This document shows positions 6,680 through 51,693 of a DNA stretch of 64,000 nucleotides, one piece after another. The position numbers and the translations under genes were made by a program. The stretch spans positions 1,760,001 through 1,824,000 of the forward strand of contig CM000151.3 of NCBI GenBank assembly GCA_000004695.1, read 5' to 3'. The stretch is from Dictyostelium discoideum (taxonomy: Eukaryota). The notes under the pieces were generated by a model. It was not told the DNA's origin. It ran no database searches and worked only from the letters and a program-made list of their open reading frames with translations. Numbering within the stretch: the stretch's first letter is position 1; each line of letters begins with the position of its first letter.

Positions 6680-10133
<3,454 letters not shown>

Positions 10134-18747: not shown

Positions 18748-18861
18748 ATTTGTGGGTAAATTTTAAAAATAAAAAAAAAAAAAAGAAATTTTTGTGAAAA
18801 AAAAAAAAAAAAAAAAAAAAAAATTAGATTATTAATTTTTATTTTTTTATTTTATTTCAAC

Positions 18862-25214: not shown

Positions 25215-26181
25215 ATTTTTTTACACCTTAAAAAATTAAAAAAAAAATTAATAAAAATTCAGATATTTATTTTCGAAAACAAATATTAAAATGAAAGTGT
25301 GTATTTTTTTTTTTCTATTATTTTTATTGAACATTTAACCATTCTATAAATAAAATGACAAAAAAATCAGAAAAAATAAACAAAGAAAGTAATGTTCAAA
25401 AACAATAATTACAAAGGCCCAAATTGATCAAAAAATGATGGATCACAATAGATATTCAGCAGTACATAATGTTTTGGATATGAAAAGTCATAGATTTGAA
25501 GAATATTGTGAATTGTTTATGAACAGTGCATTGAAATATATTAATATTGGTAACGTTCTGAATTGTGATGAAACAATATACGCATATTATGGGAGAGATG
25601 CTACTAAAGATCATATATTGATAAATAATGATAGTAGACCCCATTCAGTCGGAATTGAAGCATATAGTCTAACAACCAAATTGAATATTAGTAATTGTCC
25701 ATATGTAATTAGTTATGGTCCAAGAACAATAGAAAACTGTAAATCTCCTTTCAATTCATTAAAAACCCTTTTTGGATAATTTACATTCAAAATATAATTG
25801 GGAGGATTCAAGGAATAACTTAATCGTATGTTGCGATAGTGCCTTTGCATTAGTAAATAATAAAGAATGTTTAGATAAATTGAAATGTCGTATTTTATCC
25901 TCAACAAGGAAGAGTGGCGTGACTATTCCTCAAGAAATTAAAAGATTCGTCAAACCTTTATTAACCATACATAAAACATTCCTTTTTTATGATGAAAGCA
26001 CAGGACTATTGTACGAGTATACCAAAAATACCGATGGTCATATCAATTGCATTGCAACAAATCTATATTCAAGATTCAAACCCATATGTGGAAATTAATA
26101 ATAATCTAAATATAGAACAATTTGCAACTATTGGAAATTTATTTCGTTTTTCAAAAAAAGAATTAGAACTAATTTTTGTTG

Positions 26182-28908: not shown

Positions 28909-30562
28909 TATAATGGTTAATAAAAGATCTTTTATTTTTTTTTTTTTTTTAAAAAAATATATTAAACTCACAGTAACATCACTCTTTGAATAAACATCAA
29001 CAATTTTTGAAGTTTCACTATCAATAATTGGTACAGCAGATATTTTTTTTTCTGATAATAATTCTAAAACTTCAACCAATGGTGTATGAGTCATAACTGT
29101 TACAACGGTAGCAAATGTACCAATTCCTAATGATCCAATAGGTATTGATAATAATTTTTCTGGTAATTGTGGGAACTATTATTATTATTATTGGTATTAA
29201 ATTATTATTATTATTGTTATTGTTGATACCAATAGGTTAATATATTGATACATACAAATATAGATATTAATATATAAAGAAATATTTATACTAGTATCTT
29301 ACACTTTTCATCATAAATGCTAAAATTCTTGAATGAGTTAAAATATGTAAAATTGAATTTGTATCTTTTTTATCTACAACTGGTAATCTGTGAATTTTAT
29401 AACAAAGTAATAATGAAGCTGCATCGTATAGGTTAGTTTCAGGTTCAGTTGAAATCAATGAGGAAGGACGTTCAACAGAGATTTCTCTCCAAAAAGTCTC
29501 GATTCTATGTATACCCATATCTTGAAATATATTATTTGATTTTGGTTTTTTATAATAGTAAAGTAAGATATCTATGAAATCCGACACAGTGATCATACCT
29601 GTGAAATCATGTTGTTCCGAATTCCAAAGTGGTGCTGATTTAATGCCATTCTCTTCCAATGCATAGAATGCCGATTTCACTGCCAACTTTGTATCCAATA
29701 CCACAACCTTACCACTAATTGGTATAACATCATAACATGTATGTCCTTTTAAAAAGTTTACAAATACCTGTTTACCCTCTTCAATGTATTTCTCAGTTTC
29801 ACTATCAATTTTCTTAATACCAGATTTTAAATTTAAATTCTCTAAACCTTCTGATACTGTTGATATTGAACTATGGTTAATATAATTATTATTACTATTA
29901 CTATTATTATTATTATTTGAAGATAAAGATGATAATGATGGTGTTGTAGTTGTGGATGTGGATGTAGTTGTAGTTGTTGTTGATTTTGATGGTGAAGATG
30001 AAATTGTTTGCTTTAATGGGTTTTCATTATTATTATTATTAGTATTAGTACTACTCTTATTGTCAGTTGAAGGTAAACTTGTAATATCTTTAAAGAACAT
30101 ATTATTATTATTTAAAATCTGATTATCACCATTTGGAGGTGATTGTGATTCTTTATTGCCTTTTTCACCATCAACAGCTAATGGATCTACAGTTAATACA
30201 CCATCTTGACTAGATGATATAAATGAAGGAGATGGTTGTTCTATAGAATTTGGTGGTAATCTAATATCAAATCCATTAGATGTTGATAATATTCTTTCAT
30301 TATTATTATTACTATTATTCATTGTTGTTGTATTTGTATTTGTTGTTGTTGTTGTATTTGTTGGTGTATTATTATTAGTAGTATTATTATTATATTCACT
30401 TAATTCTCCACCACCAACTCCTTCAGATTGTTCTATTGGTAATTGATTTAAAGATGCTTGTCTTAGTTTTTCAGTTTTAATTTTAATTTCTTGGGTTTCT
30501 TTTTTCTCTATATTTTCAATTATTGAAGTGAATTCTTCATCTTCATCCCCAGGATACCACAT
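28557..30562 (-). CDS. prkag: 5'-AMP-activated protein kinase gamma subunit (four CBS motifs), 577 aa, 3 exons: 30562..29303, 29175..28972, 28826..28557
   Basis: Exon 1 (ORF 29291..30562) contains FLKGHTCYDVIPISGKVVVLDTKLAVKSAFYALEENGIKSAPLWNSEQHDFTGMITVSDFIDILLYYY...IHRLPVVD, strongly similar to AMPK-gamma CBS pairs. Donor GTAAGA at 29302, intron 127 bp, acceptor AG 29177..29176. Exon 2 is FPQLPEKLLSIPIGSLGIGTFATVVTVMTHTPLVEVLELLSEKKISAVPIIDSETSKIVDVYSKSDVT with donor GTGAGT at 28971. The 145-bp intron contains an (ATT)n tract. Exon 3 (ORF 28557..28823) continues LMSKQG...RVHRLVCIDSSKKVEGILSLSDILNYL. All junctions are phase 0. The 577-aa length matches my memory of Dictyostelium prkag. Confidence 0.9.
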
Positions 30563-46965: not shown

Positions 46966-48200
46966 TCAGTTTAAACCAAAAAAATAAAAACTAAAACAGT
47001 AAATTGTTGAATTTAAAACTTGACCAATAGCAAAACCAGCACAAATATCTTCAACAGTATGAGCACGAGTGTAAACTCTATAAGCAGCCATTGACATTAC
47101 CAAAAATCCTCTTTGAAATGGAGAGAGTGAACTGATTGAACTAATAACAATACTAGCAATAGCAGTATGACAAGATGGGAAAGAACTATGATTTGAAAAT
47201 TTATAGCAATATGGTCTTTTGAATGAAGAGAATGATGGTTTAATTAAGAATTCAATCACAAGGAATGGTATAATACATCTATAGAAATTAAAGTTGAAAA
47301 TGTTTAAAAACGAAGTTCCAATCAATAAAGTACACCATAATGTTGATACATCCAATACCGACAAAACAGTTTGTGCCAATCTATTCTCCAATAGCCAAAT
47401 TGGGATCAACCATTTGCTATGGCCGTTTAAACGTTTTCCGCTGAAATTCTCTTTTCTGCAAGTGATCAAGGAATCAATATGTGCAATGCCACCGATAATA
47501 TCGAGTATTCCAGATTGGTTTGGTTGTAGACATTGTATGATTACAATTACCAATGTTTGCACATACGCATACGATACGTAGAAGGCAATCCATTGGTCTT
47601 TGTCCATGTATCCTTCGTCTTTTATTCTTTTACCCAATCTCATCACCAAGTAAATCACTAAATAAAAGTAATATTTCACAGTTGGAAAATAAACAAAACA
47701 AACGAAAAAGAAAAACATTGTCAATAGATGATGTGCTGCAAAGAATAACTTTTGATCAACTTTATATCCCTTCCATGCTGATACCATTCCATTGAATACA
47801 ATTGTAAATATAAATAATCCATAATATTTATTAATTGGCCAATAATTTTCAACTCCATCACTATCACCATCCATCATCCATTTACCAACTATTATATATT
47901 GAATCATTGATATTATTACCATTAAAAATTCAATTATCAACCCATATTTCATACCAAGTGTTAAATATGGTGATATTGTTAATACTTCTACACTTTTTAA
48001 AACTTCTTCATTATTTTTATTATTATTTTTAATTTTTTCTTTTTGTTTTTGAATTATTTGTTGTTTATTAAAATTTATTTGTTCTTGTTGTTCTTGTTGT
48101 TGTTGCTGCTTTTGTTGTTGTAATTGTTTTTGTTTTTCTAAAATACATTCCTGTATTTCTACACATTCTAAAGTACTCTCTGAATAATTACTTTTGTTAT

Positions 48201-48204
<4 letters not shown>
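46966..48204 (-). CDS. PAP2-superfamily (type-2 phosphatidic acid phosphatase-like) integral membrane phosphatase with a Q/E-rich N-terminus, 412 aa
   Basis: ORF contains the tripartite PAP2 motifs KxxxxxxRP (KRPYCYK), SFPSGH-like (SFPSCH) and SRxxxxxHxxxD-like (TRAHTVEDICAGFAIG), plus multiple hydrophobic helices. Start in AAAAAATGG context. The alternative-frame plus-strand ORFs 47294..48032 are artefacts. Confidence 0.8.
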
Positions 48205-48236
<32 letters not shown>

Positions 48237-49074
48237 TGTTTTTTTTATATTATTTTTTTTTTTTTTTTTTTTTATTTATTTAAATATTCTTTTTTAGTAA
48301 TGGTAATTATTTAATTTTTTTTAAATTTTAATAGTTTTAGTTCTTATTATTTTTTTTAAATAAAATTTATTAGTAATTGTTATAAATTATTATAAATTAA
48401 TTATTACTTTTTTTTTTTTTTTTATTCACTTTTTTTTATTATTATTATTTTATATTTTATTATTTTCCTTTGCATATTTAGAAAAAATAAATAAAAAATA
48501 AAAAAAAAATAATAAAAAAGAGAGAAAAGATCAATTTTCTCTAAATTCATACTATCCTCACACAGAGATATGTGTCATTGTATTCTTTTTTTTTTATTTT
48601 TTTTCATTTTAAAAACATGTTTTGTGTGTGCGTGTGTGTGTAAAAAAAAATAAAAATTAAAAAATAAAAAATCTTTTAAAATTTAAACTTAAAATAGGAA
48701 AAGGAAGTATTCCTTTTCAAACAATTTTTTTCATTGCCCAATAAAGTAGCAACTCTAAATGTCCAAGCTTAAAATAAGTTTATTTTTTAATATTGGTTGA
48801 TATGTAATCCTATTTATAAATATATAAATATATATAAAAAAAATAAAAATAAAAATAAAAAAACATTATAAAAACAAATTATTTAATGTATGGTATTATT
48901 TTTTATGAGAGTGAGAGATGGGGTGTGTAGGGTGTAAAAATAGGATATTCTAAAAATCTAACTGTTTAATTGCATTTAAAAAATTACTAATTAGAAATAC
49001 TTTCATAGAAATTTATAATGCAATGGCAATTAAATAAACGAAATGATTGTGCAAATTTGGTAATTTTCAGGATT

Positions 49075-49117
<43 letters not shown>

Positions 49118-49246
49118 GTTTGAGGCGATCGTTTTTTTTTTAAGATTTTAATACCTAAATAAAAATATGTAACAATTAATACTGTGTCATAATAGTTACT
49201 TATTTGGTTAAAAAAAAATTTTATTTCTATATTTGTTTAATTTTTA

Positions 49247-49277
<31 letters not shown>

Positions 49278-49597
49278 AAAAGAAGAATTCCATATTTATG
49301 TTTTACTTTTGTGGCCAATTATTTATTTTAATGAATAGATTTTAAAAAAATATATATAAACAGCATAAATGTTAAAAAATCCCAATAATATTTAAAAAAT
49401 TAAAATCAAAGAATGGAGAATTCAATATAAAAAAAAAAATAAAAAAATTCTATTTATTTTGACAAACCAATTTAAAAATTATTTGAACCAATGTCATTTT
49501 TTTTTTTTTTTTTATTTTTATTTTTATTTTTTTTTTTTTTTTTTTTTTTTAAATGATAATAGAATACTATTACTATAACATTTTTTTTTTTTATTAT

Positions 49598-49690
49598 ATT
49601 AATTAATTAACTAATTAATTAATTAACCAATTAATTAATTAATTAACTAATTAATTAATTAACCAATTAATTAATTAATTAATTAATCAG
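49598..49690. repeat. (TTAATTAATTAACYAA)-type higher-order TTAA-rich tandem repeat
   Basis: Direct reading: ttaattaattaactaattaattaattaaccaa repeated about 3 times. Confidence 0.75.
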
Positions 49691-50135
49691 AAAATGTAAA
49701 AATAATTTTTCACAAATAACTATTAATTGTTTAAAACTCAATTTAGAAGAAATCTTTTAAACATATCGAGATTTCCATTAAAAAATAAATAATAAAATAT
49801 TAAAAATTAAAAATTGTAAATAAAAATAAAAATAAAAATTAGGAATCTTTTTTTTATAAAAAACTATTTTATTTTTTATTATTATTTTAATCAAACTTTT
49901 TTTTTTTTTTTTTTTATACATTATATTATTTTTTAAAATTTTTGTTGTTGTTTTTGGGTTAATTAAAAAAAAAAGCCTATTTAAATAATCATTTTAAAAT
50001 ATTAAAATTAGAAAATTATATTATTATTCAAAACAGAATTTTTTTATTTTTTTTTTAGTTGTTTAATTATTTTAAAAGTTTGTTCGAAACCACAATTTAA
50101 ACCATCCACAAAATTAGATAATTCCATTATGACTT

Positions 50136-50202
50136 CAACAGTTTACCCGTCCTGTCCCTGAAAAGCCTGGTAATGGGAAGACAATTCAATCAGGCAACTG
50201 TA
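50136..50202. ncRNA. Candidate small structured ncRNA (Class-I-like?) in a GC-rich island; strand undetermined
   Basis: 50095-50225 is far more GC-rich than the surrounding 3 kb AT desert. ACAGTT (50138-50143) and AACTGT (50196-50201) can form a terminal stem enclosing 52 nt, with an internal GCCTG/CAGGC pair. An upstream ATCCACAA (50104-50111) is one mismatch from the DUSE consensus [AT]CCCA[CT]AA, recalled from memory as lying about 60 nt upstream of Dictyostelium snRNA and Class I genes. There is no protein-coding signal. Confidence 0.25.
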
Positions 50203-51285
50203 AAGAGTTGCAACGGAAAAAAGCGAATTATATATAAAACTTTTTGTATTATAAAAATTTCTTTTTAATAGCATTTATTTTCAAATTAATTTGTGGGATT
50301 TTTTTTTTTTTGAAATTTTTTTTTTTTTTTTTTTTAATATTTTCACTTTTTGACTTTTTTTAAGAAAATAAACAATTACTAATTAAATTTTATTATCCAT
50401 TTCTTTTTTTTTTTTTTTATTTAAATATTAATTTTATTATAATTAATTTTATTATAATAATATTTAAATTTATAATAATATTGACATTTTTTATACTACA
50501 ATAATATTTTATTGAAATAATAATATTCAAAAAAAAAAATAATATGAAAGAATGAAAACAAAGAAATATTTGAATCAAAAATATTTTAATAATCATCAAG
50601 TATAAAAAGAATCAATTGTTTTTTAATTAATTCATCTCCTTATTTAGATTTTTTATAATAAAAAAAATAAAAAAAATAAAAAAAATAATAAAACCAATAA
50701 AAAAATAATAAAAAATAATTAAAAATAATTAAAAAAATAAAAAAATAAATAACAAAAAAAAAATTATAATAATAAAAATAAAAATACATTTTAATACAGA
50801 TTTTTTATTTTATATTTAATTTGAAAATTCGAATCGGGTCGATTTAATCCGAATTTCAATTAAAATGAAAAAATGTGTGGTAATGGAATTGAGCACACAT
50901 ACAAATAATTAAAAAATAAAAAATAATTATTTTTTTTTATTTTTTTTTTTGAATTTTTTTTTTTGAATTTTTTCATACCAATTGACTGGTCCGTGGGAAA
51001 TTCAAAAATATCAATAAATTTTTTTTCTTTTTTCTTTTTTTTATTTTTTTTTTTTTTTTGAATTTTTTCAACTCGACCTAACAAATAAAAAAAGGTAACA
51101 TTTCATTCATATAAATATTTGATTTTTTTTTTTTTTTTTATTCAAGTTATTATTTTAATAAATTAAATAAAAAAACAAATTAAAAAAAAATAAAAAATAA
51201 AAAAAACAAAAACTAATGTTTAAGTTTTAAAAAAAATAAAATTAAATAAAAAAAAAATAAAAATTTTTAATACCTATAAAGCAAA

Positions 51286-51693
51286 ATGCAAAATAAACCA
51301 TCATTCATTTTAAGAAACCCATCAGCTAATAAAGGTAAGATTAAAAAAAAGATAAAAATAAAAAACTATTTATAATAATGAAAGTAACAATAAACAATAA
51401 ACAATAAAAATTAAAAAAAAAAAAAAAAAAACGGATCAAAAAATTCCATTTTAAACAATTTGTGATCACATAAAATTTTTCATTTTTTAAAAAAAAAAAA
51501 TTAAAAATTAAAAAATAAAAAATAAAAAAAATTTTATAATGTTCCGAAAAAACACAAAAACACACACACAGTCATCAATTTAAATAAATATCATTCGGCA
51601 ATTTACAACCAAAAAAAAAAAAAAAAAAAAAAAAATTAAAAAATAAAAAATTGAAATTTACAACACCGAATTTATTAATTCAATCTCAAAATT

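Follow-up and report, generated by a model that had tools for sequence, protein, structure and literature searches.

A conserved intergenic block between malA and a PAP2-family gene of Dictyostelium discoideum is a probable gene for an unclassified, DUSE-dependent structured RNA of about 150 nt

Here we describe a candidate gene for a small noncoding RNA in Dictyostelium discoideum AX4. It lies in an extremely AT-rich stretch of 64,000 nucleotides (chr2, contig CM000151.3, positions 1,760,001 to 1,824,000), called the window below, whose own numbering is used for all coordinates unless stated otherwise. Within this 64-kb window, the malic-enzyme gene malA and a PAP2-family gene are arranged divergently around a 3.08-kb intergenic region (48205-51286). 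An initial annotation, made from the letters of the sequence alone, had singled out a GC-rich island at 50095-50225 as a possible small structured noncoding RNA gene with a promoter of the type known as DUSE (Dictyostelium upstream sequence element). The island is indeed GC-rich (0.39, against 0.13 in the rest of the intergenic region), and the core of that idea is supported by a conserved block on the minus strand together with an exact DUSE box. We conclude, with a probability of roughly 0.78, that the island represents a conserved gene for an unclassified, DUSE-dependent, structured noncoding RNA of about 150 nt, encoded on the minus strand. This conclusion is directly supported by the promoter motif and its spacing, by conservation, by a strand-asymmetric structure, by compensatory changes and by transcription of the locus. 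The gene would be of the kind formed by the DUSE-dependent small RNA genes of dictyostelids, in no described RNA family: it falls outside Class I and Class II, and is neither a spliceosomal small nuclear RNA (snRNA), a box C/D small nucleolar RNA (snoRNA) nor a signal recognition particle RNA.

Syntenic loci were retrieved via the flanking PAP2 protein, which is DDB_G0272500 of D. discoideum AX4. Besides the AX4 window, they represent D. discoideum once more, in a second assembly (L001), as well as D. cf. discoideum (L002), D. citrinum (L003) and D. dimigraforme (L004); a sixth locus, that of D. purpureum (L005), is taken up below. The aligned close loci present the same order of elements: a TCCCA[CT]AA box, a spacer of maintained length, and a near-invariant block that runs from ATT(T)CGC to GGTTTCG[AT]ACA. 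In the window this block occupies 50081-50228 on the minus strand (148 nt, AUUCGC... to ...GGUUUCGAACA). Its identity of 0.92-0.96, obtained from a four-way alignment of the whole intergenic region, is the highest of the 3-kb region, and its length is 147-151 nt in all six loci, that of D. purpureum included, despite a largely different sequence in that species. The mature RNA is predicted to measure about 148-155 nt. A transcript of 50-70 nt had been proposed for the island; the conserved unit, at about 148-150 nt, is around three times that size.

Upstream of the block, the window carries the DUSE box TCCCACAA at 50291-50298 on the minus strand, which fits [AT]CCCA[CT]AA exactly. Every one of the six orthologous loci has the box as TCCCA[CT]AA, its flanks are unconserved, and there is no other exact match in the intergenic region on either strand. 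Between box and block lies a spacer of 62 nt (50229-50290, minus strand) with a GC content of 0.10, poorly conserved in sequence and maintained in length (53-63 nt across the six loci), with TATA-like TATAAT/TATATA sequences at -25 and -8 relative to the block. The published rule places DUSE about 60-63 nt upstream of the start, and the Class I classifier script accepts 56-64 nt between the end of the motif and the transcription start site. An exact, sense-oriented DUSE 62 nt from the onset of conservation falls within that range, and the start predicted from the published spacing consequently falls where conservation sets in, at about 50228. Box and body are conserved together in six loci from five named taxa, among them D. 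purpureum.

This promoter is not the one first suspected. The earlier candidate, a DUSE-like box ATCCACAA placed inside the island, does exist at 50104-50111, but as a signal it is at noise level: the window contains 187 one-mismatch DUSE matches against 201.5 ± 13 expected. Nor is it conserved, since the relatives have ATCCGCAA, ACCTTCAA or ATCCCCAG instead, and it sits 26 nt from the stem proposed with it, compared with about 60 nt for DUSE. The exact box (50298-50291, minus strand) lies on the opposite side of the island and outside 50095-50225. The 8-mer itself is not predictive without context. Other exact matches in the window are found at 29167-29174 (minus strand), within a coding sequence and with no RNA-like body, plus those at 18750, 22625, 25587 and 44291, whose downstream GC contents are 0.04, 0.12, 0.28 and 0.27, respectively.

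The most distant copy, that of D. purpureum, was located by scanning all retrieved loci for a DUSE followed by GC-rich sequence, with a GC cut-off of 0.33 (the window matches at 25587 and 44291 fall under it). The scan returned a DUSE at 8107-8114 on the plus strand of the D. purpureum locus, in the same place and orientation, with the PAP2 orthologue about 1.9 kb downstream. Conservation in D. purpureum had been suggested as a check of the original proposal, and the syntenic counterpart has all three parts, namely DUSE, spacer and block. It retains, in order, AUUCGC, GGGACAG, RUAAAC (as GUAAAC) and GGUUUCRAACA, and by a rough, post hoc estimate the probability of this ordered chain arising by chance is about 2.5e-13.

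Copies elsewhere were sought by BLAST and with a covariance model, R2. This model scores the block at 183.8 bits on the minus strand, a match that is expected by construction because R2 was partly built from the block. No paralogue was detected in the 64-kb window or in the other retrieved loci, no copy was present beside the malic-enzyme gene in the D. purpureum or T. lacteum loci examined, and none beside PAP2 in the P. violaceum locus examined. The pattern GGGACAG..RTAAAC..GGTTTCRAACA had 0 matches in the JGI metagenomes.

The block folds asymmetrically with respect to strand. The minimum free energy of the single sequence is -37.9 kcal/mol on the minus strand (z -1.76) and -21.2 kcal/mol on the plus strand (z +0.82), and the plus-strand fold of the island is likewise no better than that of shuffled sequences (z +0.30). 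For the five close sequences, the consensus fold reaches -34.7 kcal/mol with 47 pairs on the minus strand, compared with -15.5 kcal/mol and 24 pairs on the plus strand. The initial annotation had flagged the strand as ambiguous and drawn attention to the minus-strand motif CTTTACAG; its principal model was on the plus strand, and the locus is best read on the minus strand. The stem on which that model relied, ACAGTT/AACTGT, is real to the extent that both hexamers are present (50138-50143 and 50196-50201) and enclose 52 nt, but a pairing of this type is at chance level, with about two 6-bp inverted repeats expected in some 130 nt (about 125^2/2 hexamer pairs divided by 4096). In the orthologues the ACAGTT arm reads TTAGTT, TCAGTT or TCTGTT while its partner is invariant, and the stem is not part of the plus-strand consensus fold.

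The predicted minus-strand shape is a 5' three-way junction followed by a long 3' hairpin. It opens with a single-stranded leader, AUUCGCUUUUU (50218-50228), whose AUUCGC is shared with D. purpureum. Helix P1 closes the 5' domain by pairing UCCGUU (50212-50217) with GACGGG (50146-50151), the latter strand being GACGGA in D. citrinum and D. dimigraforme. Inside the domain, stem-loop 1 (SL1, GCAACU-CUUUAC-AGUUGC, 50194-50211) has an invariant stem and a loop that varies between CUUUAC, UUUUAC and UUCUAC; it also holds a UUACAG reminiscent of Class I RNAs. The arm of stem-loop 2 (SL2, 50152-50193) is made up of CUG/CAG, UUGAA/UUCAG and GUCU/AGGC below a variable apical loop, and its 3' side carries the invariant GGGACAG (50152-50158), also common to D. 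purpureum. The two domains are joined by the linker UAAACUG (50139-50145), of which (G)UAAAC is shared with D. purpureum and the last 3 nt vary. The long, irregular 3' hairpin (50084-50138) contributes 23 pairs to the consensus fold, with a basal stem GAAGUCA.../...UGGUUUC, a distal stem UUAUCU/GGAUGG and a U-rich apical loop, AAUUUUG; the box ATCCACAA discussed above lies within this hairpin as UUGUGGAU. A 3' tail, ACA-AAC followed by TTTT, extends over 50074-50083. Its ACA (50083-50081) is kept in all six loci, and a T4 run lies 1-3 nt past it in four of the six.

We then considered how the paired columns vary. In the close species pairing holds in 97.9% of cells, compared with 35-48% when the partners are slid, a control that is inflated since the structure was derived from the same sequences. 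Three pairs are changed on both sides (for example, U-A to C-G in the 3' hairpin of D. citrinum), a number reached by 22 of 500 shuffles. The comparison with D. purpureum is more informative. In P1, UUCCGU/ACGGG of D. discoideum corresponds to UUCCAC/GUGGAA, with two doubly compensated pairs. In P3, a helix of SL2, UUGAA/UUCAG corresponds to CUAAG/UUUAG, and at the base of the 3' hairpin (P5) GAAGUCA/UGGUUUC corresponds to GAAGCUU/AGGUUUC; each of these two helices shows one double and two one-sided compatible changes. Taken over P1, P3 and P5, double compensatory changes number 4 and one-sided compatible changes 5, 8 pairs are unchanged and only 2 pairs, both at an edge, are lost; 18 of 19 pairs hold, a figure that falls to 5-11 of 19 with slid partners. 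The D. purpureum RNA apparently lacks the SL1 of D. discoideum and has lineage-specific insertions at the junctions, including an additional small hairpin, CGAAAUUACUUUCG, that separates the UAAAC linker from the 3' hairpin (8247-8260 of its locus). SL1 is perhaps confined to the D. discoideum group.

The strand is also where the published annotation disagrees with our reading. An RNA-seq model, CUFF_4092_1, annotated as the long noncoding RNA (lncRNA) DDB_G3972923, is a single exon of 288 nt on the plus strand at chr2:1809920-1810208 (PMC5295588). Using malA (chr2:1811286-1813462) and DDB_G0272500 (chr2:1806966-1808204) as anchors, we placed it at 49920-50208 of the window. The locus is therefore transcribed according to RNA-seq, and the model, which shares the locus, is an independent sign of transcription; it differs from the RNA proposed here in its opposite strand, its 288-nt length and its partial coverage of the block, and its annotation carries no analysis of promoter, structure or conservation. 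One could read the plus-strand lncRNA as the functional product, with the conserved block simply a part of it, and the strand-specific origin of the published model speaks for this. Yet AT-rich sequence that is not conserved (identity 0.18-0.30) makes up 160 of its 288 nt (49920-50079), and the model ends within the block, omitting the conserved 50209-50228. No plus-strand DUSE lies upstream of it, and the conserved DUSE points the other way. Its strand folds no better than shuffled sequences, with a consensus half as stable and half as rich in pairs as that of the minus strand. In addition, the frequent U-G to U-A exchanges are neutral on the minus strand only, while the corresponding G-U to A-U exchanges would leave A-C mismatches on the plus strand. 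We regard the lncRNA as the functional product as unlikely.

The libraries behind this annotation were strand-specific, and only models of 200 bp or longer were kept (Rosengarten et al. 2017, PMC5295588). Such a filter would remove a model of about 150 nt on the minus strand. On the comparative evidence, we give more weight to the orientation of the promoter in six taxa, the strand-asymmetric pairing and the compensatory changes than to the annotated strand. As for DDB_G3972923 itself, a true small-RNA model may have been filtered out and an antisense or read-through model kept.

Conservation in an intergenic region may also reflect DNA rather than RNA function, and the block could be an enhancer or promoter element of malA or of the PAP2 gene, with the DUSE and the fold being incidental. 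Other blocks of the same intergenic region are indeed conserved at 0.7-0.84, and DUSE 8-mers are not enriched in the window. Against this stand the compensatory changes in paired columns, the retention of a length of 147-151 nt through the sequence turnover in D. purpureum, the strand asymmetry of the fold, the presence of the DUSE at the canonical distance in six taxa, and the transcription of the locus. A role as regulatory DNA alone is, in our view, quite unlikely. Protein coding was addressed in the same comparison. The sole open reading frame starting within the RNA block (50045-50125, minus strand, ATG at 50125) has 27 codons (MELSNFVDGLNCGFEQTFKIIKQLKKK). It is frameshifted by an indel of +1 nt in the second D. 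discoideum assembly and of -1 nt in D. citrinum, so the block is not coding.

Having set aside these two readings in favor of a minus-strand RNA gene, we asked what type of RNA it might specify. Dictyostelium small RNAs that depend on DUSE reportedly include U1, U2, U4, U5, U6, Class I and Class II RNAs and others, as attributed to Hinas, Aspegren and Soderbom. The locus resembles their genes in being intergenic, in having a GC-rich body in AT-rich surroundings and in having a box conserved in D. purpureum; it differs in that its body matches no such family by Rfam or by a Class I model, and in being single-copy in the 64-kb window.

The initial annotation had likened the island to Class I RNAs. 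These RNAs (the DdR-21 family; Kjellin et al. 2021, PMC7919456) measure 42-65 nt, have a short stem joining their ends, and carry a conserved 11-nt motif, CCUUACAGCAA, unpaired and next to the 5' stem; complete Class I genes are reported to be rarely conserved between species. We built a covariance model, R1, from 33 curated D. discoideum Class I RNAs in the supplement of PMC7919456. With filters off, R1 gave no match at 50070-50300 on either strand at E<=10, and its best match in the window, away from the island, scored 14.4 bits, under the published Infernal cut-offs of at least 25 for seeds and at least 15 for the classifier (PMC7919456). The sequence was also absent from the supplements of the Class I paper. 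There are points of resemblance: the locus is intergenic, a DUSE lies upstream, the 5' part contains a loose UUACAG, the minus-strand sequence GUUGCAACUCUUUACAG loosely resembles GUUGA-CCUUACAGCAA, and the RNA is confined to dictyostelids as far as seen. The position of the DUSE, which in Class I genes precedes the start or a TGTG box by about 60 nt, agrees as well, though it is non-diagnostic, being common to other DUSE genes. By contrast, the conserved unit is 147-151 nt long rather than 42-65 nt, no helix of its consensus fold brings the 5' and 3' ends together, it has an additional conserved 3' hairpin of 55 nt, and it is conserved in synteny, as complete Class I genes rarely are. The motif-like CUUUACAGUUG (CUUUACAG) fits 7 of the 11 positions of CCUUACAGCAA; it lies in the loop and 3' strand of SL1, is variable in the close species and is missing from D. 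purpureum. A Class I (or Class II) RNA gene is hardly credible as an identity for this locus.

Further identities were examined with Rfam, which gave no match for the whole window at gathering thresholds or for the island at E<=10, in D. discoideum and D. purpureum, other than noise (RNAIII, DUF2815, K10_TLS, SpF39 and MIR4208). Covariance-model searches against Rfam and the Class I alignments, which had been put forward as the way to classify the island, were accordingly negative there. The spliceosomal models (U1, U2, U4, U5, U6, U11, U12, U4atac and U6atac) did not match in D. discoideum or D. purpureum. U1, U11 and other Sm-class snRNAs consist of a leader, a helix-closed multi-helix junction, a linker and a 3' hairpin, in about 135-165 nt. 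Our RNA has the same general architecture (leader, junction, linker, 3' hairpin, size and a probable snRNA-type RNA polymerase II promoter), a likeness of layout only. It differs in that the linker UAAACUG has no Sm site, in having no Rfam snRNA match, and in having no recognizable complementarity to splice sites or branch sites. An Sm-class snRNA was rejected: no single-stranded RAU4-6GR occurs between stem-loops, and the sole AAUUUUG is the apical loop of the covarying 3' hairpin and is not kept in D. dimigraforme, which has UUAUUCUG. Similarly, TAATTTTGTGG was dismissed as an Sm site or terminator for RNA polymerase III, because it forms the loop at the tip of a hairpin that covaries. Resemblances to U4 (AUUGAA...UUCCCAAUACC) and to box A' of U3 (UUUCAGGGA) were attributed to chance; the segments vary or are absent in the relatives, and the Rfam U4 and U3 models find nothing. 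An apparent splice donor, G/GUAAAC, was discarded since D. citrinum and D. dimigraforme have GAUAAAC.

For the snoRNA classes, we first looked for C (RUGAUGA) and D (CUGA) boxes that are conserved and lie close to paired termini. A box C/D assignment via CUGAUGA was rejected, because UGAUGA is present in only three of five close-species orthologues and is not terminal; the counterpart is UGUUGA in the window, UAAUGA in the second D. discoideum assembly and CGACGA in D. purpureum. Box H/ACA snoRNAs are built of a hairpin, a hinge (ANANNA), a second hairpin and an ACA, the last lying 3 nt before the 3' end, and have pseudouridylation pockets. In the RNA considered here, which falls into two halves, an ACA ends the block in all six loci. 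Its 5' half forms a junction, no pocket is seen in the predicted 3' hairpin, and Rfam returns no H/ACA match. A possible H box, ACAGGA in the D. discoideum group against ACAGAG in D. purpureum, is not positionally conserved.

The polymerase bears on another alternative, a polymerase III transcript of the vault-RNA, Y-RNA or tRNA-like type. On the plus strand, TGTTCGAAACC (50081-50091) is one mismatch away from the B box GGTTCGANNCC, and a T4 run follows the block in four of six loci. To our knowledge, no Dictyostelium vault RNA gene has been described, and none was found in the papers searched, which leaves room for such a transcript. The B-box-like element is antisense to the DUSE, however, and its essential C is lost in D. 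purpureum (GTTTGAAACC), where the sequence reads TTTGAAACC; we rejected it as a B box. No A box is present, the ARAGORN scan finds no tRNA or tmRNA, and the Rfam vault, Y RNA and tRNA models give nothing. Runs of T4-T6 occur within the body in every species, such as the T6 at positions 7-12 of the D. discoideum RNA, and would terminate polymerase III. We judge an RNA of this type to be very unlikely.

Our model for the preferred reading, a DUSE-dependent minus-strand gene, suggests that transcription starts near 50228 (AUUCGC...), about 60 nt downstream of the exact DUSE at 50298-50291 and under its direction, and that the product would be a structured RNA of about 150 nt ending near 50081-50074. 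From 5' to 3', this RNA would comprise a leader, a P1-closed 5' domain with SL1 and SL2, GGGACAG at the junction, the UAAAC linker, the 3' hairpin and the ACA tail. DUSE is reported to serve both polymerases; polymerase II acting in its snRNA mode appears more likely than polymerase III here because the T4-T6 runs lie inside the conserved body. We hypothesize that the RNA most likely serves as the scaffold of a stable ribonucleoprotein (RNP), in which the conserved unpaired motifs AUUCGC, GGGACAG, UAAAC and RAACA would act as protein- or target-binding sites.

Several observations weigh against this model. The expression evidence considered is a plus-strand model from a strand-specific library, DDB_G3972923, which continues for 160 nt outside the block as far as 49920 and leaves the last 20 nt at the block's 5' end uncovered. 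Exact DUSE matches are not enriched in the window, with 6 found against 11.3 expected. The alignment to D. purpureum is manual, and the covariance model R2, run with filters off, missed that copy, whose 5' domain may fold as a rod instead of a three-way junction. Most helices are invariant among the five close species, and the covariation there is modest and measured against a structure from the same sequences. Finally, no homologue was found beyond Group 4 among the loci examined.

The remainder of the intergenic region is less uniform than had been thought. The island had been described as its sole stretch of mixed complexity; two more islands are found at 48875-48974 (GC up to 0.37) and 50835-50894 (GC 0.33), and several further blocks are conserved. 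The block at 48845-49065, which holds the first of these islands, has a four-way identity of 0.70-0.84 (for example, GAGAGTGAGAGATGGGGTGTGTAGGGTG...) and could be a regulatory element or another transcript. Upstream of malA, the blocks at 50825-50891 and 50957-51129 (identity 0.76-0.82) include TTCGAATCGGGTCGATTTAATCCGAATTTC, which has an inverted repeat, and AATTGACTGGTCCGTGGGAAATTC; they are plausibly promoter or 5' untranslated region (UTR) elements of malA. Nearer the start of the PAP2 gene, shorter blocks at 48716-48765, 48506-48580 and 48324-48373 (identity 0.68-0.80) probably belong to the promoter or 5' UTR of that gene. An imperfect tandem array of TAATTAATTAA(C/T)(C/T)AAT-type units occupies 49596-49690, with a between-species identity of 0-0.18. 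The PAP2-family gene itself lies at 46966-48204 on the minus strand; DDB_G0272500 is 408-422 aa long across strains and species of the D. discoideum group, and the six homologous clusters found for it are all dictyostelid.

We found no paper text with the sequence or the gene identifier, in a search that left the earlier surveys (Aspegren 2004, Hinas 2006 and Larsson 2008) outside its reach, and the sequence was absent from the supplementary files examined for the amoebozoan miRNA paper. Should the RNA already have been reported in older de novo screens (Larsson et al. 2008), our finding would be a correct re-identification. The RNA may also have been overlooked, its sole annotation being a wrong-strand "lncRNA". 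It is possible, at slightly less than even odds, that it is the founding member of an undescribed Group 4 family of DUSE-driven RNAs of about 150 nt, snRNA-like, probably transcribed by polymerase II and acting as an RNP subunit. More boldly, it may supply the RNA still missing from a particle already known in Dictyostelium, for instance the vault or telomerase.

These results also point to a risk in annotation, in that, where RNA-seq models under 200 bp are filtered out, a lncRNA model that is kept may take the place of a smaller RNA gene whose own model was lost, possibly one on the opposite strand. The DUSE-driven RNAs of Dictyostelium form a small and well-studied set, made up of the snRNAs, the Class I and Class II RNAs and a few others. 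If our reading is true, a single-copy, syntenic, structured RNA outside those families would add a new player to this set, probably as an RNP scaffold.

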